A model generated the notes under the pieces. The model did not search any database. It saw only the letters and a program-made list of their open reading frames with translations, and was not told the DNA's origin. From positions 743 through 64,742 of the IMG/VR virus record IMGVR_UViG_3300025655_003289: a stretch of DNA of 64,000 bases. One strand, written 5' to 3'. This document shows, one piece after another, positions 1,636 through 62,718 of the stretch; within the stretch, counting starts at the first letter, position 1; each line of letters opens with the position of its first letter. The stretch is from a virus. Lineage: Duplodnaviria > Caudoviricetes. The position numbers and the translations under genes are program-made.

Positions 1636-1651
1636 CCCACACAAAAAAACA

Positions 1652-1694
1652 TGACAATAGGGCTATATAATATAAATATATGTAGCTATTGGCA
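1652..1694. promoter_or_regulatory. 43-bp dyad element, copy A
   Basis: TGACAATAG-N25(AT-rich)-CTATTGGCA. Confidence 0.7.
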
Positions 1695-1767
1695 GTATTT
1701 TATACATGTTGTTTTATGGTTATTTGCTTGATATTTATATTGCATGTGGTTGTGTAATAATATCATT

Positions 1768-2010
1768 ATGAGGAAACAGAAGTTAAGTCCTAAGGCGTCT
1801 AGGGATAAGGCGATTAGGGACAAGGAAATAGCTATGACCCCAAGGAGGCGTAAGATGAAGGCTGAGAATCAGAGGAAGAGGAGAGCTGCTAAGGCTAATG
1901 GGCAGAATATAGACGGTAAGGATTATGATCATAATAGCAAGAGGTTTGTATCTGTTAAAACTAATAGGAGTGGTCATGGCAAGGGAACTAAGAAGTATAA
2001 TACAAAGTAG
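1768..2010 (+). CDS. Small very basic protein, possible degenerate HNH-like motif
   Basis: Likely start at MRKQKLS (1768). K/R-rich, with GKDYDH...FVSVKTNRS. Confidence 0.65.
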   Translation: MRKQKLSPKASRDKAIRDKEIAMTPRRRKMKAENQRKRRAAKANGQNIDGKDYDHNSKRFVSVKTNRSGHGKGTKKYNTK

Positions 2011-4350
2011 ATGGCTAGGATAAACACGTATAATTTAGATCAGATAATACGTCCAGATGATTTAGTTATTGGTTCCTCTTATGAAGGGGAGGGGATTAAC
2101 GGGGCTATATACCTGACTCGTAATTATAGGTTATCCAAGCTAGCAGAGTTTTTCATTGGGTATGATTTCAATGCAGGGTTATCATTAACTACTTTAGAAG
2201 GGATAGTTGATCAGGCTGTTTTAGATATATCAAGTCTTGAAACAGACCTTACCGCTTTAACATCCAGGGTATCTGTAAATGAGTCTGACATTTCACAGAA
2301 TACAATTGATATAGCTGGGAATGCTTCAGATATAATAGCTTTAACATCGACAGTTCAAACCAATACAAATAACATCGGGGTAAATACATCTAGTATTGCT
2401 ACGATAAACACTAATATAGCTAATAGAGCAAATTGGGATACGGCTTATAACGAAGCTGTAACGGGGATAGCTGTTACCTCTAATGAGACTGGGAGTGTTA
2501 AGACAATAACTTTAACAAGGAGGAACGCTAGTGCTTTATCTGAGGATTTCACAGATATATTTGAGACTGGCTCTGGAGGTATAACTGACACAAACAATTA
2601 TGTAGATTCAGCATCGTTCAATGCTTCAACTGGGGTGTTAACTTTAGGGAGGCTTGATTTAGCAGATTTAACCGTATCGACATTTGATTCAAGGTATTAT
2701 ACGGAAGCTGAGGTGGATACCCTGCTTAATGGTAAGTCTGATACTGGACACACTCATACCACATCTGACATCACAAATTTAGAGTCATACACTGGTTTCG
2801 ATTCAAGGTATATAAACGCTACTGGAGATACGATGACTGGCCCATTATCATTTGGGGATAACGTTCAATTGAGGCTTGGTGGAACAAATGATTTTAGGCT
2901 TTATCACAACGGAACAGATAATATAATCCATTCAGATAACGGGGATTGGGTTTTCTTTGACGGGATCACAAATGTAACTAGAATATCAAGAGCTGACGGG
3001 AATATAAGTATTGGAGGTAATGCGGTATGGCATGCTGGAAATGATGGTCCTGGGACTGGATTAGATGCAGATACTGTTGACGGGAAGCAATTAGCCAATA
3101 TGATTGCTGAAAAAGATGCTTTGCCAGCAGATACATCAATGAAGAGCTCTACATTGCAAAGTGGAGTTTGCAGAATTAACACATTAACAACAGCAAGTGT
3201 CGGTGATGGATTGCAGGTTGTGGACGCTCCAGTTGGGGCAGCCGCATATGGCACTCTTGTTAATTACAAAAATAGTGCAGATACATTTTATAGGATATAT
3301 AAGAATTATCAAGGAGGAAGGATGTGGGTTTTCTCTGGGAACACATCTGGGAGTTCGCAAAGCGGTTGGTTTGAGGTATGGAACTCAGGTAATGACGGAA
3401 CGGGCACTGGACTTGACGCAGATACTGTAGATGGACTTGAAGCATCTCAATTTTTAAGGAGTGATGCAAACGATTCAACAACTGGAAGTATTACCATAAC
3501 AGCAGCTACTCCATTGACATTAAATCCTACTGGAGATGTAGGGATACAAGTAAACTCAGCTGGACCTGATGACTGGATAATACGTGGAGATTCTAATAAT
3601 GTTAACATTAGTGGTTTATTTATTAATGGATCTGAAAACGGAACACTATTATTAAGGGATTCGGCAGGTACTATTGGAGCCTGGATAAAGGGAGCTGGAG
3701 AAAGCACTCTCAATCATCAATTAACTGTTAGTGATGAAATAAGTTGCGGTTCAGTTGTTTTTTCAGCAATATCAGCCGTGGCAAATGCGAATAATTTTGA
3801 GACATTTATGCCTCAGACTAGTAGCATAATGACTCTTAGTCATACAACTGGAGCCACAAATTATCCTTCTGTAAGCGGACAGACATTGTTAGTTCGGGGG
3901 AATAGTGCGGGAAGATCATTCGCTATAGACAGACCAAACAATGGAACATTTCTATCCATGGGCACTTGGAATAGTACATCTTGGACTTGGAGTCAAATTG
4001 TGGACACTGCAAATAGCGCTGACTTTGGAAGCAATACTTTAACAGCTCAAAACTTTATACTATCATCGGATGCAAGGCTAAAAAGCAATGTTGAAGATAT
4101 TGCGCCTAGAGCAGACGTTCAATGGAGACAGTTTGAGCTTGGTGGTGATTTAAGATATGGTGTTATAGCTCAGGAGGTAGAAGAGATTTATCCAGAGTTT
4201 GTACACACCGATGAAAAGGGGTATAAGAGTGTTTCTTACACGGACATTCTTGTAGCTGAAAATGCAAAGCTAAGGAGTAGGGTTGAAGAGCTTGAGAAAG
4301 ATGTCAATATAATAAAGGAAATGTTGAAAGATGGCTTTAAGTACAGGTAA
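2011..4350 (+). CDS. Tail fibre with C-terminal intramolecular chaperone (peptidase S74-like)
   Basis: Heptad coiled coil, two WxxGNDGxGTGLDADTVDG repeats, C-terminal SDARLKSNV...GVIAQEVEEIYPEFV. Confidence 0.85.
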   Translation: MARINTYNLDQIIRPDDLVIGSSYEGEGINGAIYLTRNYRLSKLAEFFIGYDFNAGLSLTTLEGIVDQAVLDISSLETDLTALTSRVSVNESDISQNTIDIAGNASDIIALTSTVQTNTNNIGVNTSSIATINTNIANRANWDTAYNEAVTGIAVTSNETGSVKTITLTRRNASALSEDFTDIFETGSGGITDTNNYVDSASFNASTGVLTLGRLDLADLTVSTFDSRYYTEAEVDTLLNGKSDTGHTHTTSDITNLESYTGFDSRYINATGDTMTGPLSFGDNVQLRLGGTNDFRLYHNGTDNIIHSDNGDWVFFDGITNVTRISRADGNISIGGNAVWHAGNDGPGTGLDADTVDGKQLANMIAEKDALPADTSMKSSTLQSGVCRINTLTTASVGDGLQVVDAPVGAAAYGTLVNYKNSADTFYRIYKNYQGGRMWVFSGNTSGSSQSGWFEVWNSGNDGTGTGLDADTVDGLEASQFLRSDANDSTTGSITITAATPLTLNPTGDVGIQVNSAGPDDWIIRGDSNNVNISGLFINGSENGTLLLRDSAGTIGAWIKGAGESTLNHQLTVSDEISCGSVVFSAISAVANANNFETFMPQTSSIMTLSHTTGATNYPSVSGQTLLVRGNSAGRSFAIDRPNNGTFLSMGTWNSTSWTWSQIVDTANSADFGSNTLTAQNFILSSDARLKSNVEDIAPRADVQWRQFELGGDLRYGVIAQEVEEIYPEFVHTDEKGYKSVSYTDILVAENAKLRSRVEELEKDVNIIKEMLKDGFKYR

Positions 4351-4801
4351 TATATCCTTACAAGATGTTGTAACTGAAATTGGGACTACGCCAGATGGAA
4401 ATGGCGAGTATACTTTGTTTAGATCTTTTGCTGAAGCTCACACATATGGATTCGATCCTACATATAGAGGCATAATGAATTCTTTGTATAATTTCAAAGG
4501 ATATGACCATAGTATAGCTGAATCTGTTGTTGTTTCCCCGGCAACATATGATGCCCCTAATCAAAATGCAGGTTCTTTTACATTAACGATAACATCAAAT
4601 ACATCCTGGACTGTGAATACTAACGAGCCTACCTGGATAAGTTTTGATCAGGCTTCAGGTTCTTTAAACGACACGATAACTGCATCTTATGCGGATAATC
4701 CAGGAACAACTGCGCCAGCTAGATCAGGCAGGGTTACTGTCACTGGCGAGGACGGTGCTTTAGATTCTTGTTTAATAAATCAACCTGGAGGAACGCAATA
4801 A
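4331..4801 (+). CDS. Tail-associated protein with BACON-like domain
   Basis: LTITSNTSWTV...WISFDQASGS...NPG...RSGRVTVT...INQ pattern. Confidence 0.7.
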   Translation: MALSTGNISLQDVVTEIGTTPDGNGEYTLFRSFAEAHTYGFDPTYRGIMNSLYNFKGYDHSIAESVVVSPATYDAPNQNAGSFTLTITSNTSWTVNTNEPTWISFDQASGSLNDTITASYADNPGTTAPARSGRVTVTGEDGALDSCLINQPGGTQ

Positions 4802-4852
4802 TTAATACATAGGTAAGATAAGTAATAACAATAACATACAAAAAATATAGAA

Positions 4853-5116
4853 ATGAGTATAGATTTAACTAGAGCAGCATTTGGATTCTACGGAATGAAC
4901 GAGATAAGCTCAACGGCTACCGTAGGGGCTTCACTTGCTTATCATTCGCTTCAAGCTCTTGAGGACGCAACTGTTTCATATACTTCAAACGGAGTATCGG
5001 CAAACAATCAGTCTACATTTACATCGATTGTAATTCCTCAAGGGGCTATTATATTCGGCGACTTCACGGGTGTGTCTGTTTCTGCTGGGAAACTTATTGG
5101 GTATTTAAAAGGATAA
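4853..5116 (+). CDS. Small structural protein (hypothetical)
   Basis: Beta-rich 87-aa ORF (IPQGAIIFGDFTGVSVSAGKLIGY) in the tail cluster. Confidence 0.6.
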   Translation: MSIDLTRAAFGFYGMNEISSTATVGASLAYHSLQALEDATVSYTSNGVSANNQSTFTSIVIPQGAIIFGDFTGVSVSAGKLIGYLKG

Positions 5117-5117
5117 T

Positions 5118-6998
5118 ATGTTAGGGATCGGTCTTGGACTCAGCAATATAACCGGGGGGATAGGAAATATCATCTCCAGGATTCTATCTGCTTTAAAGGG
5201 TAGGGCCGAATACTTTGAAAATAAAGAGGGAACGGTTGATATTATAAAGCCTTTAAAAGAAAGAGAGCTTTTAGATAAGGCAAGTATCGTCCTTACCCCA
5301 ACTGCGTATTCTGACGGGTTTATACACACCGCAGTACCACAGTACAAGGTGCTCCCAACGGAATTAGTTACTAATTCAGATTTCAATAGTACAAGTAATT
5401 GGACGGCAAGCACAGAGGTATCGTCATTTACAGTTTCGGATGGTATAGCGACTATTCAAGGAACTGCTAATTCTTTTAATAACCGAATTAGTCAATCAAA
5501 CATACCTATTGAAGTCGGAAAGAAATACGAAATTAAAATAAGAATTAAATCTAATGATGGTGGAAGTTGGCTTTTAAGAACTTTTGATTCTGTTAACTTA
5601 TACCTTAATATTGCTTTAAGTAACAATACTGAATTTAATACATATACATATTATTATACTGCTAAGACAACGATTTTCACTATAAATTTAGCAAGTTACT
5701 ACACGTCTGGTACTGCTGATATGTCTGTTGATTTTATTTCAATAAAAGAAATACAAGAAGCAGATTTTGATTTTGTTCGAGCAACAACCGCTACACGAGT
5801 AAATGAATTAGGTTTAATAGAAGAAGTAGCAGCAGGTATTCCAAGGATAGATTATAGCTCAGGTGTTGGTCAATGGTTATTTGAGCCTGCAAGGACTAAT
5901 TTGCTTAATTATACGGAAGATTTCTCAAATGGCGTTTGGGGGGGTATTGCCAGTTTTGGCTCTTTAGCCAGCGTAACAACAAATCAATCTATTTCTCCTG
6001 ATGGTCTTCTTACTGCTGATTTAATAACCGGAACTGGTACTGTTGGCTCACAAAGCAGAAGGATGAGGGCTTCATCTGTTGTTAGTCCTATTGTGCCTAA
6101 TGCTTATTATACGTTTTCAGTATTTATTAAAAAATCAGCTACATCAATAATAACATATCATTTAGATGCTGCTGGTGCTCTCGCAGACCAACAAGCCAAA
6201 TGGGGCGTAAATAATATTTATCCAAGTCTTTCATACAATTTCGATACAGATGAGCTTACAAATAATACATTAGATGCGGTTGTTTCTAGACAAAAACTAA
6301 GTAATGGTTGGGTTAGAGTTTGTATTTCTCTAAAGGCGTTAGCTAATGGAAACAATCAAGTAATCCCGGGATGGATTGGAAAATCTGGAGATACCCATTA
6401 TGTATGGGGAGCAAGTTTTGAAGTGGCTTCTTATCCAACATCTTATATACCTAATACGGGAGCAACTGCTACTAAGACACGAAATGCAGATGTAGCAAAC
6501 AATAGCGGTAATGCAGACTTATTTAACGATAGTGAAGGCGTGCTTTACGCTGAAATAGCTGCTTTAGCGAATGATGGGACTTATAGAGAAATTACTATTT
6601 CAGACGGTACAAATTCAAATTGGATAGAATTTAGATTTCAAAACGCAAACGTAATTACTGGACAAATAAGAAAAGCATCGGTTGATTATGTTACATTAAA
6701 TTATACTACTACTAATTTATTGAATTTGCATAAAATTGCCTTTAAATATAAGGTAGATGATGTTGCTTTGTGGGTTAATGGAATTGAGGTAAGCGCAGAT
6801 GTTATTGTGCCATCTACTCAATTACCAACTGGATTAAATAAATTAAATTTTGATAGAGGTGATGGAGGTAATATATTCTACGGCAATACAAAAGAGTTAA
6901 TGTATTTCCCAGAAGCGTTAACTGATGAAGAACTTGAAACATTATCATCTTGGTCTACTTTTGAATTAATGGCAGCAGATCTAGAATACACAATATAA
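5118..6998 (+). CDS. Tail fibre / receptor-binding protein paralogue 1
   Basis: FDFVRATTATRVNELGLIE...PRIDY...LFEPARTNL, a CBM-like beta module and a LamG/ConA-like C-terminus. Confidence 0.75.
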   Translation: MLGIGLGLSNITGGIGNIISRILSALKGRAEYFENKEGTVDIIKPLKERELLDKASIVLTPTAYSDGFIHTAVPQYKVLPTELVTNSDFNSTSNWTASTEVSSFTVSDGIATIQGTANSFNNRISQSNIPIEVGKKYEIKIRIKSNDGGSWLLRTFDSVNLYLNIALSNNTEFNTYTYYYTAKTTIFTINLASYYTSGTADMSVDFISIKEIQEADFDFVRATTATRVNELGLIEEVAAGIPRIDYSSGVGQWLFEPARTNLLNYTEDFSNGVWGGIASFGSLASVTTNQSISPDGLLTADLITGTGTVGSQSRRMRASSVVSPIVPNAYYTFSVFIKKSATSIITYHLDAAGALADQQAKWGVNNIYPSLSYNFDTDELTNNTLDAVVSRQKLSNGWVRVCISLKALANGNNQVIPGWIGKSGDTHYVWGASFEVASYPTSYIPNTGATATKTRNADVANNSGNADLFNDSEGVLYAEIAALANDGTYREITISDGTNSNWIEFRFQNANVITGQIRKASVDYVTLNYTTTNLLNLHKIAFKYKVDDVALWVNGIEVSADVIVPSTQLPTGLNKLNFDRGDGGNIFYGNTKELMYFPEALTDEELETLSSWSTFELMAADLEYTI

Positions 6999-7000
6999 TT

Positions 7001-8248
7001 ATGGCAAACGAAACATTTAAACTAGGGGCAACAAAATGGGCTTACAAAGAAGGGAGTTTGCTTGCGTATAATGATGTAAACAATAACTTTAAGCCTTTAC
7101 CTTTTACTTTTACCCGTGCATCTACTGCGACACGAGTAAACGAAAATGGTTTAATAGAAGTAGTTAAAAGTGGTATACCAAGGATTGATTATACAGATAA
7201 TCCAAGCGGTCATTTGTTGCTTGAGCCTGCAAGGACTAATTTAGTTACTTATAGTGAGGATTTTTCGAATGCTGCTTGGACTAAATCAGCAAGTATATCT
7301 TTAACGCCTTTACAATCATCACCTGATGGTGATACAAACGCTTATAAAATAACTGCGACATCGCCAAGTAATACTCATTCTATAAATTTTAATTATAATA
7401 TTTCGTCAACTGGCGATTATACTGCTTCTTTATTTTTAAAATATTCAGATGCTCAATGGATTCAAATTTATTATGGGTCAACTGCATTTTTAGGTGGACA
7501 CGCTAATTTTGATGTTCAAAACGGAGCAATAGGAACTGTGGCATCTGGAGTTATCGCAAAAATAGAGCCTTATTCAAATGGTTGGTATAAGTGTTCAATA
7601 ACAAAAGAAGCGACATCTACTGGAAGCACATCAACTTGCGCATCAATACCAGTTTCATCTGGAACTGCGAATAGATTTGGAAGTGAAGTTTCTGGTTCTT
7701 ATTATATGTATGGCGCACAACTTGAAGCAGGCTCATACGCTACATCCTACATACCAACAAACGGTACAACAGTAACAAGAGCAGCAGAAACTTGTACTGG
7801 CGCAGGTAATGCTCAAGTATTTAATGATAGTGAAGGAGTTTTGTTTGCGAATGTTGCTGCGTTGGCTAATGATGGGACAACAAAAGATATAAAATTGCTT
7901 TCAGTAGCGGCTAACTTTGTGGCTTTAAGATTTACAAGTTCTACAAATCAACTTCAAAATTATATTTTTGATGGAGCAATAGCATATTCGCAATTCACGA
8001 CAGCTGATGATTTAACTGCGTTTAACAAAATAGCCTTAAAATATAAAGCTTCAGATTTTGCCACATTTTTAAATGGGAATAAATCATCATCGAGTTCTTC
8101 TGGAGATGGCAATATTTCATCTTTAAGTTTAACATCTTTAAATTTTGATTCTGGAGCAGGGGGAAATTATTTCTACGGCAAAATAAAACAAATAGGCGTT
8201 TACGATACTGCGCTAACAGACGAAGAATTAGAAACATTAACTACATAA
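7001..8248 (+). CDS. Tail fibre / receptor-binding protein paralogue 2
   Basis: Same FTRASTATRVNENGLIE...PRIDY...LLEPARTNL...ALTDEELETLT architecture. Confidence 0.75.
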   Translation: MANETFKLGATKWAYKEGSLLAYNDVNNNFKPLPFTFTRASTATRVNENGLIEVVKSGIPRIDYTDNPSGHLLLEPARTNLVTYSEDFSNAAWTKSASISLTPLQSSPDGDTNAYKITATSPSNTHSINFNYNISSTGDYTASLFLKYSDAQWIQIYYGSTAFLGGHANFDVQNGAIGTVASGVIAKIEPYSNGWYKCSITKEATSTGSTSTCASIPVSSGTANRFGSEVSGSYYMYGAQLEAGSYATSYIPTNGTTVTRAAETCTGAGNAQVFNDSEGVLFANVAALANDGTTKDIKLLSVAANFVALRFTSSTNQLQNYIFDGAIAYSQFTTADDLTAFNKIALKYKASDFATFLNGNKSSSSSSGDGNISSLSLTSLNFDSGAGGNYFYGKIKQIGVYDTALTDEELETLTT

Positions 8249-8252
8249 TAAA

Positions 8253-8615
8253 ATGGCAAACGAAATATTTAAAAAATATGAATTTGATTCAGAATTAGAA
8301 GCTGAAGCAATAATCGCAGGGTTACCGCACGCAACAGACGAAGAAGGTAATACCTATCCAACGCATAAGCATTCAGTTGTTAGACTTGGTTATTTATGGA
8401 CTACCGAACCAACATTCGATGAAGAAGGCAACGTAGTAACCGAAGGTGTTCAATCGGATAAGTATTCTGTTGATGTTCTTTGGGATGGCGATTCTTTGTT
8501 AGTCGATGAAGAAATAGTTTATCCTAACGGATGGGTAGATGCTGAGATTCAATACGACCCGTCTTGGCAATCAAAAAACGGAGCCCACACATTCGCAGGA
8601 TGGTCTTTTAACTAA
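8253..8615 (+). CDS. Acidic partner/chaperone of the tail fibre (paralogue of 11001..11363)
   Basis: FKKYEF...HKHSVVRLG...DEEGN...YSVDVLWDG shared with 11001..11363. Confidence 0.6.
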   Translation: MANEIFKKYEFDSELEAEAIIAGLPHATDEEGNTYPTHKHSVVRLGYLWTTEPTFDEEGNVVTEGVQSDKYSVDVLWDGDSLLVDEEIVYPNGWVDAEIQYDPSWQSKNGAHTFAGWSFN

Positions 8616-26207: not shown

Positions 26208-29093
26208 ATGCCAGAGATTAAGAATACTTTCCTTGCTGGTAAGATGAATAAGGATAGGGATTTGAGATTAGTTCCTGAAGGGGAATATCTTGAAGCCCTT
26301 AATATTCAAATAACCAAGTCTGAAGCAAACGATGTTGGAGTTATACAGAACATAGTTGGTAATCAATTGGCTCACACGTCATTAGGGTTAGCCTCTGGTT
26401 ATGAAGTTATAGGGTCTTTCTTTGACGAAAGAAATAATAGAATTTTTTGGTTTGTAACAAACGACACAAATAATTATATATACCTATGGAATGTTGGAGG
26501 AGCTAATGCTACCGCTATAGTATCTGGAATATTCCTTAACTTTAATAAAAATAATAAAATAACAGGCGTTAATCTTCTTGAGGATTTATTATTTTGGACT
26601 GATAATAGAAATCAACCTAGGAGGATAAATGTAGTTACAGCTATAGGAAACAATAGTTATTATAATTCTGAAGCTAAAATTAGCGTGGCTAGAATAGCCC
26701 CTTGGAAAGCTCCGACAATTATAAATACATATCACGATACTTCTATTCAGTCTAGGTTGATGGAGGAAGAGTTTGTAAGATTTGCTTATAGATATAAATT
26801 TTCAAACAACGAATATTCTATTATATCTCCATTTTCTCAAATTGTTTTTGAATTAGGAAATGAATCAACATCAACAAATGTAATAAGTCAATCAGATGAA
26901 AATAGAATATTTCAATCTTCTGAAAACTTTAAATTTATAAATAGAATAAATAAAGTAGATCTTGGAATACACGTTTTTTCTCAAAACCCAATCTCAGATT
27001 ACGAAATAGTATCAGTAGAAATATTATACAAAGAATCCGATTCAACAGCTGTTAGAGTTGTTGACACTGTAAAACTTACAGATGGATTGTCTTCTGATAC
27101 GTATACATATACGTACAGATCTACACCTCCAAAATCAACGCTCCCTGAAGATCAAATAACTAGAGCTTTTGACAATGTGCCTATTAAGGCATTAGCTCAG
27201 GAGGTAGCTGGTAATAGAGTTATTTATGGCAACTTTACTCAAAATTATGAAGTTCCAACTTTATTTTATTCAGTTTATTCATCTATAAAAAATGATTCAA
27301 AATATCCTCATCATTCTGTTAAACAAAGAAGAGATTATGAGGTTGGGATTGTTTTAGCTGATAAATACGGAAGAACATCTCCTGTTATATTATCTAATTC
27401 ATCTAGGGTAACTTCAGTCGCAAAGAATGAAAATTTTGATTCATTATCATGGCCTGGAGATAGCTTAAAGATAATATTCACAGCTAATGCTGTTGGAGGT
27501 GATTTATATAATCCTAATAGCGCAACAGATGATTTAGGATGGTATTCTTATCGCGTTGTTGTTAAACAAGTGGAACAGGAATACTATAACGTATATAATC
27601 CAGGAATAACAAGAGGGTATTTAACAATATATAATGATAATATAAATAAAGTACCTAGAAACACAAGTGACTCAATAGACTCTGACGATTTATATCCAAC
27701 AGATGTTAGATTATATCCTAAGCTTATAAATTATTCAAGCGGAAGTATTGCTCAGGCTATATTACAAAAAAATTCAAATGAAGGTTTGTATAATATAGAA
27801 TCAATAGGGACTGCAGATGCATTTGACTTGTATGATGCTGATACAGTTGATAAATCGCTTGGTTTTTATGAACAAAGAAAATTTCACTTACTTGGAAAGC
27901 TAGAAGAAGGTATAATTGGTAATAATCAAAATACTCCATTCAATGGCGTATTATCTGTTTTTGAAACAGAACCATTTAGATCTACTTTAGATATATACTA
28001 TGAAACATCAACAAGTGGGTTGATTCATGAGTTAAATGCCTCTCAAAATATAAACATATCAAACGTACTTGTTGAGCCAGAGGGTTATGGTTCTGGTGTA
28101 GAAGGAGCTTTAACTGTAAAAGAATCTACACCAATAGGAAGCTACATTGCTAGATTAAGAGGAATAGATCAAAGTTCAGGATTAGATGTTGATGGAACTA
28201 CTTTTGCATTAACAAGTTCTACAGGTCAATTCGCTATAGAAAAAGACCCTTTAGATGGCTATTACAAGATAAAAACATTGGTTTCATTCGTTGCTGGACT
28301 AAGCGGACCATACAATCTTAACATAACCCCTTCGTTTGGAGGCTCTAGTTTTCAACAAGACACAAGTACCGTCACTATAACCCATTCAACTCCGACGATA
28401 ACTCAAATGGGGTCCATTTCGATAGCTAAAGATTTTTACTCCGTTAGCACTGCCCCACACACAGTATTTACATTGAGTGTAACAAATGGATCTTCTACAA
28501 CTGGAATAAATAGATATTTCGGAATAAGTTCTTCAGATATAACATATCAAGAGTATCACGATGGAGTTCTTCAGACATCTGCATTTATTTTTGGATATAC
28601 ATATTCTAATGGTCAAGTATTTTTAAATGCTGTATCAGGAACTACAACACATTCCGGAAAATACATAACCGTAAAATTAACATTAACAAATGGAGGTTTA
28701 ACAACAACTTCTGAAGGGATAATATATATAAGTAACACTACTGGTGGAGGAAGTGGATTAACCGCAATAAATATGAAATACGACCTAAATGCGTCAGAGT
28801 ACCTATATGCAAATACCCCGTCCGGGGGAGACTCCACTAGAGCAGCTTGTCCTAATTTATCCCTATTCCCTTATCAGGGTGACCTTTACGTTGACGCAGG
28901 AGTAGCAATAACAAGCGGACCACAATTATATGGAACTTCAGACGGAAAAAAGCTCGCCTCAAGCGGCTGGTATATAGAATCTAATGGTAATACAGCTGGC
29001 AAATGGCTTAAAGTTCAATCCGGAACAGATGCTGATGGAAAAATAACTTATATAGGATATTGGGATATTTTACCAACTACTTGTACTACATAA
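26208..29093 (+). CDS. Tail muzzle/stabilisation (tubular B-like) protein, N-terminal part with cadherin-like insert
   Basis: GKMNKDRDLRL.P.GEY..ALN, LFWTDNRNQPRRIN, GIVLADKYGR and later VKESTPIGSYIARL. Confidence 0.7.
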   Translation: MPEIKNTFLAGKMNKDRDLRLVPEGEYLEALNIQITKSEANDVGVIQNIVGNQLAHTSLGLASGYEVIGSFFDERNNRIFWFVTNDTNNYIYLWNVGGANATAIVSGIFLNFNKNNKITGVNLLEDLLFWTDNRNQPRRINVVTAIGNNSYYNSEAKISVARIAPWKAPTIINTYHDTSIQSRLMEEEFVRFAYRYKFSNNEYSIISPFSQIVFELGNESTSTNVISQSDENRIFQSSENFKFINRINKVDLGIHVFSQNPISDYEIVSVEILYKESDSTAVRVVDTVKLTDGLSSDTYTYTYRSTPPKSTLPEDQITRAFDNVPIKALAQEVAGNRVIYGNFTQNYEVPTLFYSVYSSIKNDSKYPHHSVKQRRDYEVGIVLADKYGRTSPVILSNSSRVTSVAKNENFDSLSWPGDSLKIIFTANAVGGDLYNPNSATDDLGWYSYRVVVKQVEQEYYNVYNPGITRGYLTIYNDNINKVPRNTSDSIDSDDLYPTDVRLYPKLINYSSGSIAQAILQKNSNEGLYNIESIGTADAFDLYDADTVDKSLGFYEQRKFHLLGKLEEGIIGNNQNTPFNGVLSVFETEPFRSTLDIYYETSTSGLIHELNASQNINISNVLVEPEGYGSGVEGALTVKESTPIGSYIARLRGIDQSSGLDVDGTTFALTSSTGQFAIEKDPLDGYYKIKTLVSFVAGLSGPYNLNITPSFGGSSFQQDTSTVTITHSTPTITQMGSISIAKDFYSVSTAPHTVFTLSVTNGSSTTGINRYFGISSSDITYQEYHDGVLQTSAFIFGYTYSNGQVFLNAVSGTTTHSGKYITVKLTLTNGGLTTTSEGIIYISNTTGGGSGLTAINMKYDLNASEYLYANTPSGGDSTRAACPNLSLFPYQGDLYVDAGVAITSGPQLYGTSDGKKLASSGWYIESNGNTAGKWLKVQSGTDADGKITYIGYWDILPTTCTT

Positions 29094-29094
29094 T

Positions 29095-30315
29095 ATGGCA
29101 AAGATAATTCAAGTACAATACTACAATACAATCATAGTCAAGCCAGACGGAACGAATGGTAATTGGCATATAGAAGAGTCTAGGATTAAAGGGGCTTATA
29201 ACGCTAAATCTATGGATTATGGCGTTAGGGCTCATATTGTAGATGAAAATTACGATGTTCAAAATAGGACGAATAGCCTTATATACTCAGGTATATACAA
29301 CAACAGAACTGGAGTAAACAATACAAATCAATTCCCAATAGACAAGCCTATAACGCTGTCTGTAGATATACAGCAAGGATCCATACAAAAATTATTCGCT
29401 GAAGATCAGATACTTAATATATTCCAAGAGGAGAAAGTTAGATATGTTCCAATTGATAAGGATATAATATATACAGCCGAAGGAGTTCCAATATCAACAT
29501 CAACAAACGTATTTTTAGGCGATATAGTATCTTATGGAACTAACTATGGAATTGGAAAGAATCCAGAGAGCTTTAGTTATTATGCTGGAAGAAAATATTT
29601 CGTAGACAAACCAAAAGGGGCTGTATTGAGGTTATCTAGAGATGGCATAACTGAAATATCAAACTACGGGATGCGTAGCTTCTTTAGAGACAACCTATCT
29701 GGTTCAAGTGAAATACATACTGCATGGGACGTACACAACAAAGAATTGGTTTTAACATGCATAAAGCCATCTGACAGCTTCACCATTTCATTTGATGAGT
29801 CTGTTAATGGATGGGTTTCATTCTACAGCTATATACCACAAGGATTCTCTGGAAGTTTAGATGGTAATTTCTATACATTCAAAAACAACAATATATACGA
29901 GCATTATTCAAATCCAGAAAGCTACAATAATTTCTACGGAACCTCTTATAGTTCTGTAGTTGATTTTGTATTTAACAGCCAGCCTTCAGTAAATAAAAAC
30001 TTTTATACTATAAATTATGAAGGAACAGATTCGTGGAATATAACTAATATAATAACGGATTCAGATTCAGCTGAGAATATACCGGCTTATAATATAAGTA
30101 ACCAAGACTTAATAATATCTGGATTCCAAAAAATACATAATAAATACTATTCCAACATAATGAACTCTACAACGTCTAATCCAAATGAGGTTGTATTTGG
30201 AGCTGAGATGTCTGGAATAAAAGGATTCTTTGCATCAATGAAGATACAAACATCGTCCACATCCTACAAAGAATTATTTTCAGTATCAACAAATTACAAT
30301 ATAAATACTTACTAA
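29095..30315 (+). CDS. Tail muzzle/stabilisation protein, C-terminal part
   Basis: GSIQKL, YGIGKNPESF, GAVLRLSRDGITEIS, GWVSFYSY. Confidence 0.7.
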   Translation: MAKIIQVQYYNTIIVKPDGTNGNWHIEESRIKGAYNAKSMDYGVRAHIVDENYDVQNRTNSLIYSGIYNNRTGVNNTNQFPIDKPITLSVDIQQGSIQKLFAEDQILNIFQEEKVRYVPIDKDIIYTAEGVPISTSTNVFLGDIVSYGTNYGIGKNPESFSYYAGRKYFVDKPKGAVLRLSRDGITEISNYGMRSFFRDNLSGSSEIHTAWDVHNKELVLTCIKPSDSFTISFDESVNGWVSFYSYIPQGFSGSLDGNFYTFKNNNIYEHYSNPESYNNFYGTSYSSVVDFVFNSQPSVNKNFYTINYEGTDSWNITNIITDSDSAENIPAYNISNQDLIISGFQKIHNKYYSNIMNSTTSNPNEVVFGAEMSGIKGFFASMKIQTSSTSYKELFSVSTNYNINTY

Positions 30316-35600: not shown

Positions 35601-38600
35601 ATATGTTTATGAATGTCCCTGAAAAATCCAGGATAAATTTCATAGAGAGCATAAGAAAAAGTCCACGAACAGCGTTTGAGGTGTTAACTGCGAATGCTAA
35701 TGCTAACCACGGAATTACATTTGTCAATGATTCAAAGATAAAGAGCGTCATAAAAGACGAAAAACTTAGTGAATTTGACAAAACAATGGCTGCAATCGCT
35801 CCAAAGCACGAGGTTGGACACCATTATATGACGGTGAAGAACATAGAAAATATGGACGAGTCGATCATAGATAGAGCTTACGAGGATTTAAAAAATAAGA
35901 TAAATCGCAAGATATATAAAAATAGAAATCGTGCATTAAGCAATGAGGTTGAAGAAAGAATAAAGACGTATGAAGCGATAGCAGGAGGAAATAAAAAGTT
36001 GAAGTTTGAGGAGCTGATGAATTTATACTCTGACTTAAACTCTATAGGCTTCATCAATGACTCCGATATAGATTCTTCTTTTAGATTTAAAGATTTATTT
36101 AGGATTGGACAGAAAGATTTATTTGGCGAGTTAGATTCTGCTGCTGAATCTTCAGACATAAACTCTTCAATAATGAACCACTTGAGGTCATTTGAAGGTT
36201 TCTGGAAGAGTAAAAATAATCTTAGCGGTGGTTTGTCCAGAGGTAATGGAAGTCTGCTTAGTGTAGGGGAAAAGAGAGCTATGTACGATAAGATGTTTCG
36301 TAGTGGCGAAATAGACATGGACCAATATACAGATGCAATAATGAAGATTGCTGATGAGCAAGAAAAGAGTCCTAGTTCATGGAAGTCTGTGTTTAATGAA
36401 GCTCAAGAAACAATGGACCTCAACAATAAGACGGAGATACTTAACAGGCCAAAAGTAAGGAAAGCTTTAAAACAGCTCATCGAATATAACGCTAAAGACG
36501 TTATTGGCGCTGCTAAAATATCTGAATATGAAAAAGAGTCTTTTATCGATGATGTTATAGATGGTTGGGGAGGAAAAACAGGACTTGCTCACAGATTAAA
36601 AACATACGATCCTTCTCTTAAAAAATTAAACGGATACTTAACTGACAAGGTTAGGCAAGAAGCTCTAAACTTAGCTAATAGCACAAAGTACAAGAAAGAG
36701 CAGTACGACGTTAGAACTGATGACTACGAAGCTGGATATGACATCGCTTATCAAGATAACTTTGACGAGGCATTTGACCATCGTATTTTTGACGAAGGAG
36801 ATGTTTTAATAGATCCTATATCTATATTTAAGGATAAGGCTTTTGAATCAAAGGCGTCGGCAGAGGTAAGATCTAAATTTAATACTAGCGAGAAAGCCAA
36901 AATGTTTTTTGGAGACACTAGTAATTTAGTAACGGAATCTTTATCTGAGAAATTTCAAATACGAGAAGAGAGATTCTTAAAAGAAACTGGACAATTAAAT
37001 GCTGATGAATTAAACTCTTCAGCAAAAATAATATTCGACGCTGCTGAGGATATATATAATATATTACCTGATGCAAACTACGTTCTAGATCCAGCTTCGG
37101 CGGAAGGTAGAGGTATTAGCGTAAACATGAAGAGATTACTTCTTGATAACTTCTATGAGGTTGATTTAACAAGGCCAGAAGTCAATCCTAATACCGGTCG
37201 ACTTAAAAGGGAATTTGAAGAGGGTGTAGCTAAGACTGGTAAAAAAGTTACTGGAGCTAGCTCAGGAGTCGTTAAGTTCAAGAAACAGTTCAATAAAGGA
37301 GAGTTTTTGTCGATGCTTGGTATTAATGAAGATGGCACAAATAACTCATTTAGAGGTAAAAGTGATGAAGCTAATTTAAGACTTGCTGTTTTAAGGCAGA
37401 TTGGTAAATTAATAACCAATACCGAAGGGAGAAAAATAATGGAAGAGATGGGTGTTCCAACTCAAATGATAGTTGATTTCGGGGCCGGAAGGAGTAGTAG
37501 CATGCTTTCTGCTGGGAAAGCATTTACAAGGTCTAAGTTTAAATTTGTAGATTCAGAATTAAACATAACAGAAGAAAATATTAGAGAGACAATAGAGTCT
37601 TTAGATAGCGACGAGGATTTGTATAGATATGGAAACTATATGATGTCTCAGATGATGAATGACGAGAAGTTGTCTGATATGTTCTTCAAGATGGTTTTAA
37701 AGCTATATGAGTTAAAAGCTACAAGGTCTAAAGCGCAAACATTATTGACGATGCACCCTGGCATCAAAGGAATTTTCAATAAGAAGGGTGTTGATGCTAA
37801 ATCGGTACTTATAGGGTTAGCTGAGATATATAATAATAAAAAGGATTCTAGAATATTATCCGAGTACTCTCAGAAAGCTTACAATGTAATATCAAACTTA
37901 ATAAACGATACTGGCCTTAGTATAGACATAGCTAAATACATATTCCACTTCGATGCGGAAAATAAATCTAGTGTTGGCTCTGGAAAATTTGACGTTTCAG
38001 AGAAAACCAGTAAATACGCCGAAAAAACAAAGGAGGAGTTTAATAAGTTTAGGGAGGAAGGTATTGACAACAAGCTTTTCTTCTCGAATAAATTGAGTTC
38101 TGAGATCAATAAATATTTAAGGGAAACAGTTGGTCAAGATAACGAAACAAGGCTAAAGCATGTCGAAGGTCTTATAGAAAAAGCAAAAAAATACAATAGC
38201 TTAAAGCTTAACATAAGAAACACTGTTATCTCTGGATTGCACGACATGTTGTCTGATCCAAATCTAACTCCAGAACAATACACTGAAGCTGTTGCATACG
38301 CAACTTATGCATTAATCAACACTGGGTCTGGAACTAAAAACTTAGTGGAGATAAGCAAAGATCACAGTATGATAAGTGAGAATACTTTGATTAGAGGTGA
38401 CAAGTCTACTCTTTCGGTTATAGAAAAGAAAAAACAAAATCCAAAAGTAAAGCATCAACCTTATGTTCAAATAGAGCACGCTGTAACTACATCAAGTTAT
38501 GACGTTCAAGCAGCTATGTCCGCCATCACTGGTAAAATACCTTCGAACAACTATAGATATAGAGGAGGTGTTGTCGATGCCTCATACTCGAGAAATGTAG

Positions 38601-40885
38601 ATTCAAGAGGTATTAGACTAATAATGAATGGGGTAAACAAAATAGATGTTGACTACAGGACTCACTTAACAGGAAGAAGGTATAATGAGCTTAGGACTTT
38701 AGCGGAAAAAGACGGAGCTAGGATATTTAGCACATCTAAAGCATTCACTGAGCAAAACGGACTTGGAAGTAATCCTGAATCTAAAACAGACAGAGACAAT
38801 CTTGAGTATGTTACTGCAAATATAATTAAGAAAGCGACGGGTATAAATGTAGACGAGCAGATATCAGAGTCTACGGCTAGGCTTAATTCTGACAGAAGGA
38901 AGAAAGAGTTTAGATTTATGGCTCCTTCAGCTGATGATTTTACTGGTTTTTGGTATTCACTACTTGGTAAAGGTAAAGAGGGTGATGCTCAGAAAGCTTT
39001 CTTCAACAAGTATTTAACAGATCCGTTGAATCGCGCTTATGTGGCTATGACTCACGCTAGACAAAAGATAACAAGGGACTTTAAGGACTTGAACAAAGAA
39101 TATGAAGATGTAAAGGTTTCTATGTCTAAGGGGTCTGGCTATTTAAAATACACAAATGACCAGGCGCTTAGAGCATACTTATATTTGAAGTCTGGAAACT
39201 CAACATCGACATTAGGAATAAGTGAAGCTGACGCTAAGGCATTAGGTGATATTGTGATGTCTAACCCAAGAATGATGGAGTACGCAACTTATCTGCAGGA
39301 ATTGACAGGGACTACTGAATCATGGGTTAATCCAAAATCTAATTGGACGTTTGGCTCCATATTTGAAGACGTTGAGAGAATTATTGATGACGTAAAGAGA
39401 GCTGAGTATCTTGCTGAGTGGAAACAGAACGCAGATGCTATTTTCTCTCCGAACAACTTAAATAAGATAGAATCTCATTACGGGACAGACTTCAGGAATG
39501 CACTAGAAGATATGCTATACAGAATAGAAAAGGGGAAAGCTATACCTGAGAAGACAACTAAAGAGATGTCTGAGTTTCAGAAGTGGCTTACTGGTTCCGT
39601 TGCTGTTACGATGTTCTTTAATGCTAAATCAGCAGTACTTCAGTTAATGTCTATGACAAACTACATCAACTGGTCTGACAATAACCCTATACAAGCTGCT
39701 AAAGCATTCGCTAATATACCTCAGTTTGCTAAAGATGTAGTAAGAATATTCAATTCAGACTATCTCAAAGAAAGAAGGGGAGGGTTGAAAACGGAAGTTG
39801 AGGCCGCTGTATTAGCTAACGAACTCAGAAAGGGTGGGGTTGAAGGTTATAGAGGTTTTGTAAATAAATTGTTGCAGAAGGGATTCACTTTCACACAAAT
39901 AGGCGATAGTTTGGCTATATCTTTTGGTGGTGCTAGCTTTTATAGAAACAGGAAGAAGTCTTATATGAAAAAAGGAATGAATGAACAACAGGCTCATGAT
40001 CAAGCTTGGTTGGATTTCATTGAGGCTACTGAGCAATCTCAACAATCAGCCAGACCAGATAAATTATCAATGCAACAAACAACTAATGTTGGTCGTGTTT
40101 TCTTAGCTTTCCAAAACACGCCTATGCAATACTATAGGCTTACCACTAGAGCTGCTCAAGATTTAGCCGCTGGAAGGGGTGATAAAAGAGAGCATATAAG
40201 TAAGATAGCTTATTATTCATTTGTTCAGTCTGCAATTTTTTCTGGATTACAACAGTCGCTATTTGCATTTATGGGAGACGCTCCAGAGGATGAAGATGAC
40301 AAGGAAAAATACGACGCAGAAAAAGAGAAGAGAGTAATAAGAACTATAAATAGTGTTTTAGACACCATGTTAAGAGGGAGCGGTTTAAGAGGAGCTTATG
40401 TTGCCACAGTTAAAAATGCAATGTTAGAATTTGTTGCTCAAGAGAAAAAAGGCTATAAAGCTGATCACGCTAGGACACTTATAGAAGCATTGAACCTATC
40501 AGCTCCAATAGGCATTAAAGCTAGGACATTGTATCAGGGCGCTTACATGAACTACAAATACAACAAAGATATTGTAGAGGATATGGGCTTTGATATTGAT
40601 AACCCAGCATATGATATCGTAGGAAGTTTACTATCGGCTGGCGTTAATATTCCCATGGATAAAGTAATAAACGATATAAGACAATTGAAAGAAGCAGCTG
40701 ATTCTGACAATGACGCATGGCAAAGAGTTGCATTACTTTTAGGATGGAGCACTTGGAATCTTGGAATGGAAAATGAAAAGATTGAAAAATTAAAAGAGCA
40801 AAAGACGAAAGAGAAAAAAGAGGAAGCCAAAAAGAAGCGCCAAAGTAGATCTGGATGGGGTAAAAAATCAAAAAGTGGCTGGTAA
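32666..40885 (+). CDS. Giant multidomain ejection (polyvalent-type) protein with zincin HExxH and a sigma2-like segment
   Basis: 2739 aa. N-terminal KLYxAL...YTKSFDxFKTQFG repeated twice, HEVGH at aa 1048, GLAHRLKTYDP...LNGYL near aa 1305-1325. Confidence 0.7.
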   Translation: MEKLYQALYSSGKYTKSFDEFKTQFGTEEGAKKLYSALNSKGSYTKSFDDFKTQFGFEFKGALVDQEPTAAESKTEQPSFEDQYAAMSEEMMKQYTPQQAKTEPQDAGATVEEGVAPGTELSSGDGSSDSQEEYVDSDTAIADFYIKDGKKIPLTAEEYKDISFISKDFDYTLGDSYIIKGPGLGENGVSYNKKEIIEAANQYNMSPSAYLQSFINNPKYGVSVKQGGQTGGLEVPETVISAKAPEITRSETYTEYVDTPKGTIPVERTKTVSVNDEVEKYKNDVLDPIDNEIRRKQDEINSLLTDAYESQNESESKKIQGKIDELYVEKESLNQKREKEIGYFMRNYSEVEQKVVSNLLMSDTQSNIDKALGLKSKLDLKRKALSDFRDDNNIELLVGQLKGFDSQLLDIEKKIKSATSESEARVLLGEFMDIYKSPAYENLYNKLSTIGRVRDELIKDNTELMSMTDDVNLEENIKKAAATDYKKSSMALRDVDRFLGKTMIGLSVITPFVSTEEKDKLEAEITAAFDERWKNVAQPLNLDDFKSGKVSFGDYIGEVLASNAASTVGSVMMYALPGGQVIAPTIFGLSQAGQKKSDLKYYNRMIDAQMEQLKKSLENPDNKDNQDEIISEIDKLEQLKYTDNDIFYSAVMSGVIEGGITRLAGALGTGQLKIPGAGRLFEGTKIGKAFYDPSKLKLLKKGGGMTLGELSEEYPIAYLDKTLVDNLWLGQGRSASKIWQDISDITTWDMTANILINSGGSGLAFGSISAMSPLVNNARENARRREQFGKLMNYKNILNDRSLDYGQRMEADKEYKKLLAEISINEQNAWARMLSLSSEEFQEVYDLTYKKAQVKNKVAELTRKQITQGDKVQNKNVQSILTDLDNEYRGYDDRISELIDQKDGDLKAKDFLYMANYQAALGVSKAKSGRNFFKMGDAYMDLVNAANDVQLKIERGEQVDQNEINNIAEQLASRLENDNMFMNVPEKSRINFIESIRKSPRTAFEVLTANANANHGITFVNDSKIKSVIKDEKLSEFDKTMAAIAPKHEVGHHYMTVKNIENMDESIIDRAYEDLKNKINRKIYKNRNRALSNEVEERIKTYEAIAGGNKKLKFEELMNLYSDLNSIGFINDSDIDSSFRFKDLFRIGQKDLFGELDSAAESSDINSSIMNHLRSFEGFWKSKNNLSGGLSRGNGSLLSVGEKRAMYDKMFRSGEIDMDQYTDAIMKIADEQEKSPSSWKSVFNEAQETMDLNNKTEILNRPKVRKALKQLIEYNAKDVIGAAKISEYEKESFIDDVIDGWGGKTGLAHRLKTYDPSLKKLNGYLTDKVRQEALNLANSTKYKKEQYDVRTDDYEAGYDIAYQDNFDEAFDHRIFDEGDVLIDPISIFKDKAFESKASAEVRSKFNTSEKAKMFFGDTSNLVTESLSEKFQIREERFLKETGQLNADELNSSAKIIFDAAEDIYNILPDANYVLDPASAEGRGISVNMKRLLLDNFYEVDLTRPEVNPNTGRLKREFEEGVAKTGKKVTGASSGVVKFKKQFNKGEFLSMLGINEDGTNNSFRGKSDEANLRLAVLRQIGKLITNTEGRKIMEEMGVPTQMIVDFGAGRSSSMLSAGKAFTRSKFKFVDSELNITEENIRETIESLDSDEDLYRYGNYMMSQMMNDEKLSDMFFKMVLKLYELKATRSKAQTLLTMHPGIKGIFNKKGVDAKSVLIGLAEIYNNKKDSRILSEYSQKAYNVISNLINDTGLSIDIAKYIFHFDAENKSSVGSGKFDVSEKTSKYAEKTKEEFNKFREEGIDNKLFFSNKLSSEINKYLRETVGQDNETRLKHVEGLIEKAKKYNSLKLNIRNTVISGLHDMLSDPNLTPEQYTEAVAYATYALINTGSGTKNLVEISKDHSMISENTLIRGDKSTLSVIEKKKQNPKVKHQPYVQIEHAVTTSSYDVQAAMSAITGKIPSNNYRYRGGVVDASYSRNVDSRGIRLIMNGVNKIDVDYRTHLTGRRYNELRTLAEKDGARIFSTSKAFTEQNGLGSNPESKTDRDNLEYVTANIIKKATGINVDEQISESTARLNSDRRKKEFRFMAPSADDFTGFWYSLLGKGKEGDAQKAFFNKYLTDPLNRAYVAMTHARQKITRDFKDLNKEYEDVKVSMSKGSGYLKYTNDQALRAYLYLKSGNSTSTLGISEADAKALGDIVMSNPRMMEYATYLQELTGTTESWVNPKSNWTFGSIFEDVERIIDDVKRAEYLAEWKQNADAIFSPNNLNKIESHYGTDFRNALEDMLYRIEKGKAIPEKTTKEMSEFQKWLTGSVAVTMFFNAKSAVLQLMSMTNYINWSDNNPIQAAKAFANIPQFAKDVVRIFNSDYLKERRGGLKTEVEAAVLANELRKGGVEGYRGFVNKLLQKGFTFTQIGDSLAISFGGASFYRNRKKSYMKKGMNEQQAHDQAWLDFIEATEQSQQSARPDKLSMQQTTNVGRVFLAFQNTPMQYYRLTTRAAQDLAAGRGDKREHISKIAYYSFVQSAIFSGLQQSLFAFMGDAPEDEDDKEKYDAEKEKRVIRTINSVLDTMLRGSGLRGAYVATVKNAMLEFVAQEKKGYKADHARTLIEALNLSAPIGIKARTLYQGAYMNYKYNKDIVEDMGFDIDNPAYDIVGSLLSAGVNIPMDKVINDIRQLKEAADSDNDAWQRVALLLGWSTWNLGMENEKIEKLKEQKTKEKKEEAKKKRQSRSGWGKKSKSGW

Positions 40886-54244: not shown

Positions 54245-55006
54245 TTAATTTAAAAAATCCAACACCTCATTTGGTTCAACAGCATCGATAAGTTTATCTA
54301 TCGCATCCCTCTTTATTTGAGATACACGGACAAAATCAGCTGTTCCTTTAATCTCCAATAGCTCTGCTATTTTTTTAGCTGGTAACTTATCGCAATCAAG
54401 CCCATAACTAAATCTAAGTACATTGTATTCCCTATCCGTCAAATGTTTTCTCATAAGGGACAATACGTACTTATTAAGTAAAACTATATTGTACGGCTCA
54501 TTCTTATCTTCTACCTCAAAAGTAGAATCTCCGTCGTCATCAATCTTGTCGTCAATACTAAGGAACACGGAATTAAAGAACATCTCAACAAGTGCGTGGT
54601 CTTTACCATTATCCTTTCGTATTTCTGTAAGCTTATACTCTGGTATTCTTATGTCTCCACGATAAGAGTCTATCGCCCTGCGAATACCACCTCTAATTCG
54701 TTTAGATATAAACCCTTTAATCTGCTTCTCGATGTCATCTTCTAGGTTCATCTTGCCGAAGTCGAGTCTGTGTATAGCAAAAGTTAAACTAGCATTTGCT
54801 TCTTGTATTAAATCTTCATAGTTAATAATTCCAGACGTCGTGTCTGATGTAGAAAAACTTCTAGCAATCTCCTCTGCGTATGGCATAAACTTAATGATGA
54901 GTTGTTCTTTTGTATACTCATCAAAAAACTTACCCTCCATATTGGCTAGGGACGTGTTCAAATCTTGCTTATACCTTGCGTAATTTGCTTTGTTGTAATA
55001 CTTCAT
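54245..55006 (-). CDS. Sigma70-family RNA polymerase sigma factor
   Basis: Region 2 YEDLIQEA...RIRGGIRRAID...IRIP, region 4 LTDREYNVLRFSYGL...IAELL...RVSQIKRDAIDKL. Confidence 0.88.
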   Translation of the reverse strand: MKYYNKANYARYKQDLNTSLANMEGKFFDEYTKEQLIIKFMPYAEEIARSFSTSDTTSGIINYEDLIQEANASLTFAIHRLDFGKMNLEDDIEKQIKGFISKRIRGGIRRAIDSYRGDIRIPEYKLTEIRKDNGKDHALVEMFFNSVFLSIDDKIDDDGDSTFEVEDKNEPYNIVLLNKYVLSLMRKHLTDREYNVLRFSYGLDCDKLPAKKIAELLEIKGTADFVRVSQIKRDAIDKLIDAVEPNEVLDFLN

Positions 55007-55647: not shown

Positions 55648-55663
55648 GTGTTATTAAATAGTT

Positions 55664-60839: not shown

Positions 60840-60853
60840 AACAATTACTTTAG

Positions 60854-60925: not shown

Positions 60926-60930
60926 ATTTG

Positions 60931-62240: not shown

Positions 62241-62482
62241 CAGTGATTTAAAGAATGCACATTCAAGATATGAATCAAATCCTCTAACCCTTGACGGTCA
62301 TAGACCCTTAACGTTTCTGAATTAAACATCTCCACAAACCATCCTATATCACCAACCTCACTCTGACAATGCGTGATTAAAGTAATATCCCCGATATCTA
62401 AGTTGTAGTAGTGATCTACATCGCCATAATCCTCTATATCAACCCTATTGAATCCTAAGTCAATTAAATCCTGCTCTCTCAT
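62240..62482 (-). CDS. Hypothetical early protein
   Basis: MREQDLIDLGF...; its TGA overlaps repeat copy 7. Confidence 0.6.
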   Translation of the reverse strand: MREQDLIDLGFNRVDIEDYGDVDHYYNLDIGDITLITHCQSEVGDIGWFVEMFNSETLRVYDRQGLEDLIHILNVHSLNH

Positions 62483-62718
62483 GATTTATCTTTTAACTCT
62501 TCCTCTAACAATTCAATATACCTCATCATTGCATTGATGTAGTGACCATCGTCAGCCTTTAACTCGAATATCCTCCATGAAAAATACTCGAACGCTTCAT
62601 TTACTGTTTCTAACAATACTCTATTATTATTCATTTATCTACGTTATCTTCGTTAAACATCCAACTTAATAATCCCGCTATAAAAAACATAACTATTATA
62701 AATATACCTCCACTCATG

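Follow-up and report, generated by a model that had tools for sequence, protein, structure and literature searches.

How does a Bacteroidetes phage that encodes no RNA polymerase (RNAP) begin transcription from promoters unlike those of its host? Phages start transcription through the host holoenzyme acting on host-like promoters, or through an injected polymerase as in N4, the crAss-like phages and phiKZ. The question is posed by the IMG/VR virus record IMGVR_UViG_3300025655_003289, a genome of 64,742 bp rated 100% complete, of which 64,000 bases form the window, whose coordinates are used here. The locus in question is a giant open reading frame (ORF) in the structural gene block, whose 2739-residue product carries, downstream of a HExxH motif, a subdomain resembling region 2 of sigma70 factors (sigma-2). 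The best single reading of this locus, to which we give somewhat less than even confidence, is that the giant protein is injected and that its sigma-2 domain helps to start transcription at the phage promoters. If true, this would add to the two known routes a distinct third one, in which a giant injected protein brings its own sigma domain, and would explain how Bacteroidetes phages without a polymerase use non-host promoters, given the unusual promoters of the Bacteroidetes. No description of a virion or polyvalent protein with a sigma domain emerged from the literature searched, supplements aside.

A sigma region 2-like domain in a giant protein

By itself the 2739-residue protein matches nothing in Pfam, PHROGs, the PDB sequences or 50,697 deposited phage records. 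A HMMER search with amino acids (aa) 1000-2199 against 1.84 billion representative sequences returned 539 clusters at E<=0.001, mostly of giant proteins of 2000-3200 aa, and jackhmmer delimited aa ~1195-1640 as a module common to about 75 of the giant relatives. Three profiles were used: A1, in which 32 diverse homologues, 16-28% identical, are aligned to window aa 1245-1632 (33 sequences); A2, from 7 sequences; and A4, from the 10 closest full-length relatives of the window protein. Compared with all PDB sequences, A1 gave 17 matches at E<=10, 12 of them to sigma factors, and all 12 fall on sigma region 2 in one register at A1 positions ~8-148 (centred on ~28-119). The best are phage T4 gp55 (7d7c_F, E=0.036), a sigma fragment (8b3z, 0.04) and 8x6g_H (0.09); RpoH, RpoS and SigK are also found. 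In NCBIfam, TIGR02937 matches 3 of the 33 A1 members (best 2.9e-7), with sigma models making up 10 of the 23 families listed, and in PHROGs the late sigma transcription factor family (PHROG 234) is matched by 2 of the 33, together with two families named "RNA polymerase sigma factor".

When 91 related viral records were scanned in six frames with Pfam Sigma70_r2, four giant ORFs were matched (28.8 bits in relative G015, 18.5 in G076, 15 in G093 and 12.9 in G042), the remaining matches being ~250-aa free sigma genes and one stray 161-aa ORF. Three of the four lie within or abut the N-terminal part of the module; the placement in G042, where coordinates disagree, is unconfirmed. For the 2404-aa giant protein of G015 the sole Pfam match at E<=0.1 is Sigma70_r2 (hmmscan, 22.4 bits, E=1e-4, aa 855-921 on profile positions 1-67 of 71), and the sole NCBIfam match at that threshold is TIGR02937 (30.3 bits, 2.8e-7, aa 850-1009 on positions 1-145 of 165). 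A hidden Markov model (HMM) built from 75 family members, each less than 30% identical to the window, scores window aa 1253-1347 at 53.1 bits, as against 7.8 bits for the best of 145 reversed decoys. The conserved columns are hallmarks of sigma-2: acidic-D, G, (F/Y)DP, L, Y-I-N and L..R. The subdomain is thus very probably a homologue, greatly diverged, of sigma70 region 2. A first-pass annotation of the window had noticed by eye a likeness to this region at "about aa 1255-1340", which is borne out at the family level for the whole of aa 1253-1347; its position for HEVGH (aa 1048) also holds, the downstream FEELM that it saw is at aa 1114 (nucleotide 36005), and the segment EKESFIDD...NLAN is at aa 1289-1338.

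Several results weigh against a sigma domain that starts transcription. Save for the 28.8-bit six-frame match, library scores in giant proteins lie below or near the curated cut-offs (24 bits for Pfam Sigma70_r2 and 42.9 bits for TIGR02937). In PDB searches the A4 profile has no sigma match, and A2 places SEC31 first (0.014, a match judged spurious) and a sigma factor only at 0.27. Alignment by hhalign of the sigma-like half with the free-standing sigma factor of the same phage is not significant (P=0.24 and 0.19), and the module is without a match in the 50,697 deposited phage records. Because the window's own segment has no direct sigma match in Pfam, NCBIfam or the PDB, the window copy is tied to sigma models only through the family profile. 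The likeness might, then, be a chance resemblance of helical segments in a domain unrelated to sigma factors; the individual E-values are marginal, 0.036 being the best in the PDB, and A2, A4 and hhalign yield no significant sigma result. Such a coincidence seems very improbable, however, since four libraries (Pfam, NCBIfam, PHROGs and PDB) point to sigma factors in a single register, and since the G015 protein matches a sigma model and nothing else in each of the two libraries given above.

The surroundings of the subdomain are also conserved. In 83 giant proteins the subdomain comes with sufficient sequence on its flanks; HExxH is found within 350 aa upstream in 78 of them (median 173.5 aa, range 141-287) and within 350 aa downstream in none, the background being 0.114 per 350 aa. 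H1048, E1049, H1052 and E1116 are invariant in all 10 close full-length relatives. As the region matches no peptidase family or structure in Pfam or the PDB, "zincin" is a motif-level call only, and the region is possibly a zincin-like metallopeptidase. The zincin of the first-pass annotation is accordingly retained in part: the HExxH and a Glu further on are conserved and stand upstream of the sigma domain, but no library gave a zincin match. The stretch of 45 residues after the subdomain is acidic (aspartate plus glutamate fraction 0.24, as against 0.14 overall). An AlphaFold2 model of A1 (mean predicted local distance difference test score (pLDDT) 74.8, predicted template modelling score 0.59) has six helices in residues 8-104 (block pLDDT 74-87), disorder in residues 98-134 and a confident alpha/beta domain in residues 135-372, a layout consistent with a sigma-2 bundle that has a flexible linker behind it. 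As judged from sequence and model, the cassette comprises, in order, the HExxH region, a much diverged homologue of sigma70 region 2, the acidic linker, predicted to be disordered, and a folded domain of unassigned role.

The start of this folded C-terminal half of the module may be a helix-turn-helix resembling sigma region 4: in one relative, G015, the TIGR02937 alignment extends to profile position 145 of 165. Against this, and against a complete sigma factor in the giant protein, Pfam Sigma70_r4_2 has 0 matches when 53 records are scanned for it in their giant ORFs, and the C-terminal half aligned to the free sigma by hhalign gives P=0.21. Among 141 relatives, 109-117 cover aa 840-1380, 80-87 cover aa 1440-1620 and 126-141 cover the C-terminal 750 aa. 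The C-terminal half of the module is optional: among seven near-complete genomes without a full-module match, six still have the giant protein, and three to five of these retain a detectable subdomain alone. The 51 short homologues of the module, 187-686 aa long, lie mostly on 1-3 kb contigs and are therefore probably fragments.

A further alternative is that the domain descends from a sigma-2 fold and no longer contacts RNAP, its helices instead having a structural or packaging role within a giant protein inside the virion. The similarity is indeed weak, and the window copy, which lacks direct library matches, has lost most of the sigma signature residues, retaining one aromatic in its "GYLTD" stretch. 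Yet the positions that the family conserves are precisely the sigma-2 hallmarks, and 88 of 144 related giant proteins retain the ~95-aa subdomain, about 37% along products of 2000-3300 aa, with HExxH upstream (78 of 83) and the acidic linker after it. We regard a purely structural role as improbable.

The giant protein has a counterpart in the polyvalent proteins of phages and conjugative elements, which are very large, multidomain and co-delivered with DNA; zincin-like HExxH domains have been proposed to process them, some of their modules have been proposed to jump-start transcription, and the N4-type giant proteins are always fused to such HExxH domains (Iyer et al. 2017, PMC5512222, main text). 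The word "sigma" has 0 occurrences in that main text, supplements being outside this count. The family described here resembles polyvalent proteins in its great size, its multiple domains and its HExxH region, and differs in lying outside Pfam and PHROGs. In G015 (L075; giant ORF 1391..8605, minus strand) the variable region of the window protein is replaced at aa ~1690-1860 by a HAD-type phosphatase motif recognised by eye (FDFDQT, DxDxT); the region is not among the Pfam matches at E<=0.1, and the motif fits a polyvalent protein with swappable modules. The N-terminus of the window's giant protein (32670-32839) has a directly repeated unit of ~27 aa, KLYxALxSxGxYTKSFDxFKTQFG, with related N-terminal motifs in homologues; the repeat may be a packaging or targeting signal.

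Phage promoters without a phage polymerase

No RNAP family was found among the scanned ORFs of the genome, none of the six reading frames of the complete sequence contains DFDxD, the catalytic motif of the crAss-type two-barrel enzymes, and the giant protein matches no solved virion RNAP (vRNAP) in the PDB. A crAss-type RNAP concealed within the giant protein is rejected for lack of both DFDxD and an RNAP match. The first-pass annotation had reported no RNAP catalytic motif in the window and had named an RNAP gene beyond it as evidence that would speak against its proposal; what it saw in the window is true of the complete 64,742 bp, which have neither DFDxD nor an RNAP family.

A 33-bp element occurs in 9 copies in the window, where shuffled sequences predict 0, and a further copy lies in the remaining 742 bp, giving 10 in the genome. 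On the transcribed minus strand it reads AGCAAATCCACTACGAG-N6-TTGATAATTA-N3-TGTAA, with an ATG 20-25 nucleotides downstream. The consensus is CAAAy-N4-TACGA-N7-TkGATAAT, of which CAAA, TACGA and GATAAT are each kept in at least 80% of 53 sites from 10 genomes; from the spacing, GATAAT occupies the -10 position and CAAAy lies at about -35. The promoters of Bacteroidetes are of the type TTTG/TAnnTTTG. Strict host-type TTTG-N17-22-TAnnTTTG sequences number 4 as compared with 2.95 expected, none of them well placed, and E. coli-type promoters are not enriched (48, as against 42.7 +/- 6.2 in shuffles). The element is, from its sequence and distribution, a conserved, phage-specific promoter class unlike that of Bacteroidetes; the first-pass annotation had also taken it for a non-host early promoter. 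A search of 596 Gb of prokaryote genomes found the motif in 95 stretches, near the estimate of about 70 for chance. Where a prokaryote contig has two or three copies, it is nearly always a small one from a metagenome-assembled genome, and in 2 of 4 genomes checked phage free-sigma genes lie on other contigs of the same assembly. A k-mer scan of the late and middle intergenic gaps returned AT-rich words only. In many relatives (L083 and L082 among others) the first ATG lies merely 5-10 nucleotides past GATAAT, which suggests that their early mRNAs are leaderless or nearly so.

The phage also encodes a free-standing sigma70-family factor of 253 aa with regions 2 and 4. Of 8000 candidates scored as its homologues, 7769 reach E<=0.001, some of them named as sigma-70 family members, and the gene is found on 502 IMG/VR contigs. 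Its own gene lies downstream of one promoter copy (58346-58378), as had been noted at first pass; this last copy is 3.4 kb upstream, while in relative G066 a copy stands directly upstream of the free sigma gene. That the free sigma gene is within motif-driven units, with no host-type promoter evident, favours a promoter reader that exists before the free sigma is made.

Proposed delivery of the giant protein and candidate readers of the promoters

The giant gene is the last of the structural block, after portal and capsid and right behind the muzzle genes. Giant genes with "structural protein" labels occupy the same position in Elemovirus and in MW202828, and Tenacibaculum phage Gundel_1 has a protein, likewise labelled structural, that the C-terminal domain weakly matches (E=6e-6); the Gundel phage paper mentions mass spectrometry 0 times. 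From this gene order, these labels, the Gundel_1 match and analogy to crAss-like and N4-like phages, packaging and injection of the giant protein are plausible. The N4 vRNAP, gp66 of crAss-like phi14:2 and the tape-measure-fused RNAP of P23-45 are giant proteins of this kind, encoded in the structural block and thought to enter with the DNA and to start early transcription from phage-specific promoters. A muzzle protein is, moreover, common to this phage and the crAss-like phages of Bacteroidetes. Unlike the N4, crAss-like and P23-45 enzymes, the protein described here contains no polymerase, and its cassette would borrow the core enzyme of the host.

To our knowledge, the beta' clamp helices of core RNAP are the docking site of every sigma-2 domain. 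In the reading favoured here, the giant protein would enter the cell along with the DNA, its sigma-2 domain would dock on the clamp helices of the host core enzyme, and the docked domain would help initiation at CAAAy-N4-TACGA-N7-TkGATAAT promoters rather than at host-type ones; the HExxH region may release the cassette from the giant protein. The same promoters would also drive the free sigma gene, whose product would then take over or amplify. This is essentially the proposal of the first-pass annotation, and the sigma-2 homology, the upstream HExxH, the lack of an RNAP, the non-host promoter and the position of the free sigma gene in its units agree with it; packaging and injection, cleavage by the HExxH region, binding to host core RNAP and the singling out of the giant protein as promoter reader are its conjectural parts.

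The free 253-aa sigma is a serious rival for that role, although we think it somewhat unlikely as the full explanation. It would read the promoters after being started by slight host-driven or read-through transcription, and the sigma-2 domain of the giant protein would bind core RNAP for another job, which could be displacing or blocking the host sigma (host shut-off) or holding RNAP at the incoming DNA or at the ejection complex. Having both regions 2 and 4, the free sigma suits a promoter with -35-like and -10-like parts. The conserved -35-like part thus counts against the giant protein, in which region 4 is not established or detected, and suits a sigma of two domains, as the free factor is. 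It also counts against the favoured reading that all 7 near-complete genomes without a detected full module keep the promoter, for which the C-terminal half of the module is therefore dispensable. The drawback of the rival is that a starter is still needed for the free sigma, because its gene lies in units of the same promoters (at 3.4 kb here, directly in G066) and has no convincing host-type promoter.

Comparison of genomes, which had been put forward at first pass as a check, bears on both candidates alike. Of 36 near-complete genomes that encode the free sigma, 35 carry the motif and 29 the A1 module, and the free sigma is present in 6 of 6 near-complete genomes found through the module. 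Three cultured or deposited relatives without the free sigma also lack the motif, save for one 2-mismatch match in MW202828, an absence that would speak for the free sigma as reader were it not that the same three lack the module and its sigma-like domain. Presence and absence thus favour neither sigma: the segment and the 33-bp motif do co-occur, but promoter, free sigma and giant-protein domain travel together, so that the comparison assigns the promoter to neither of the two.

Two known kinds of phage sigma factor help to place the domain. T4 gp55, the best PDB match of A1, is a sigma consisting of region 2 only that reads a -10-like element, with gp33 and the sliding clamp as its partners; neither partner turned up in the Pfam scans, which included no search aimed at them. 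Made in the course of infection, gp55 is small and free, whereas the present domain is embedded in a protein of 2000-3300 aa. The free-standing sigmas of the phiEco32/7-11 gp36 type retarget host core RNAP to phage promoters (PMC8948821); these are made after infection from host-read promoters, whereas the present domain would arrive ready-made with the virion. Its similarity to the free sigma of the same phage is not detectably greater than to other sigmas.

In its most extended form, which we put forward tentatively and consider rather doubtful, the reading holds that a clade of marine Flavobacteriia podophages has swapped the virion RNA polymerase of its crAss-like and N4-like counterparts for a virion-delivered sigma-2 (possibly also sigma-4) cassette, perhaps freed by the HExxH region, which would capture host core RNAP and fire the phage's own promoters without new protein synthesis. 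The clade is large, with the free sigma on 502 contigs and 539 representative clusters in the giant family; the phage collection searched contains no cultured representative of it. With the promoter consensus and the cassette boundaries in hand, the idea of an injected sigma is directly testable in vitro.

Features of the window and neighbouring genes

The positions of the features discussed above are collected in the table.

Table. Coordinates in the 64,000-base window of the giant gene and its parts, the muzzle genes, the promoter copies and the free sigma gene.
Feature	Position	Strand	Evidence or remark
crAss-type muzzle (tail) protein genes	26208..30315 (two ORFs, 26208..29093 and 29095..30315)	+	PF25731 E=1.8e-10, PF25729 E=6.7e-11; just upstream of giant gene
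Giant ORF, 2739 aa	32666..40885	+	last large gene of structural block; presumed polyvalent-type virion cargo or ejection protein
HExxH region, aa ~1000-1190	35663..36235	+	HEVGH at nucleotides 35807-35821; conserved Glu1116 at 36011-36013
Sigma70 region-2-like subdomain, aa 1253-1347	36422..36706	+	profile matches; holds segment aa 1289-1338 (nucleotides 36530-36679)
Acidic linker, predicted disordered	36707..36832	+	aspartate plus glutamate fraction; pLDDT <50 at model residues 98-134
C-terminal half of module, aa ~1390-1625	36833..37540	+	alpha/beta domain, block pLDDT mostly 85-98
C-terminal domain, widely conserved in giant protein family	38603..40882	+	covered by 126-141 of 141 relatives
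Five 33-bp promoter copies	312-344, 516-548, 1038-1070, 1254-1286, 1340-1372	-	early promoter class
Four 33-bp promoter copies	58346-58378, 62208-62240, 62994-63026, 63765-63797	-	early promoter class
Free-standing sigma70-family factor, 253 aa, regions 2 and 4	54245..55006	-	Pfam region 4 E=6e-4; SigA region 4 (PDB) E=2e-4; Pfam region 2 15.2 bits

Structural genes occupy the plus strand from ~1.7 kb to 41.8 kb, and the early and replication genes are on the minus strand. Pfam matches in the window include tail fibre parts, GroEL, a P22-like portal and the crAss-type muzzle protein, together with ribonucleotide reductase, ThyX, a primase-helicase, a TonB-dependent receptor and a BACON domain. 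Podophages of Flavobacterium (Elemovirus), Maribacter, Cellulophaga and Tenacibaculum have portals 42-54% identical to the one encoded here; the phage therefore appears to be an uncultivated marine Flavobacteriia podophage, whose host is probably a member of that class. The GroEL-type chaperonin (Cpn60_TCP1, E=3e-55) is encoded at 11943-13517 on the plus strand, and the Elemovirus and MW202828 genomes have one as well. Unusually for a podophage, the auxiliary genes include that of the TonB-dependent receptor, 848 aa with plug and barrel domains (41885-44431, minus strand). Six tRNA genes (Arg-TCT, Met, Thr-TGT, Lys-TTT, Pro-TGG and Gln-TTG) are clustered within the early region at 60853-61557 on the minus strand.

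Three non-coding elements were seen besides the promoter class. Between the early and late blocks, at 1529-1636, are three tandem repeats of ~36 bp with CCCCATACCTC, which may be an origin or packaging site. A perfect 12/12 TTGACA-N16-TATAAT is present at 62695-62722 on the minus strand, in the intergenic gap upstream of ORF 62479..62634. An element of ~59 bp, D3, occurs in three copies, at the point of early and late divergence (1643-1701), at the start of a helix-turn-helix gene just upstream of the free sigma gene (55596-55654) and in the early region (63210-63268). It looks partly palindromic by eye (TGMCAATAGGG...AT-rich...CCCTATTGKCA), although an inverted-repeat scan found no such arms and only two other pairs at 1640-1741. 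With sigma70-like hexamers on both strands, such as CTGACA-17-TATTAT at 55648-55620, D3 may act as an operator or represent another class of promoter.

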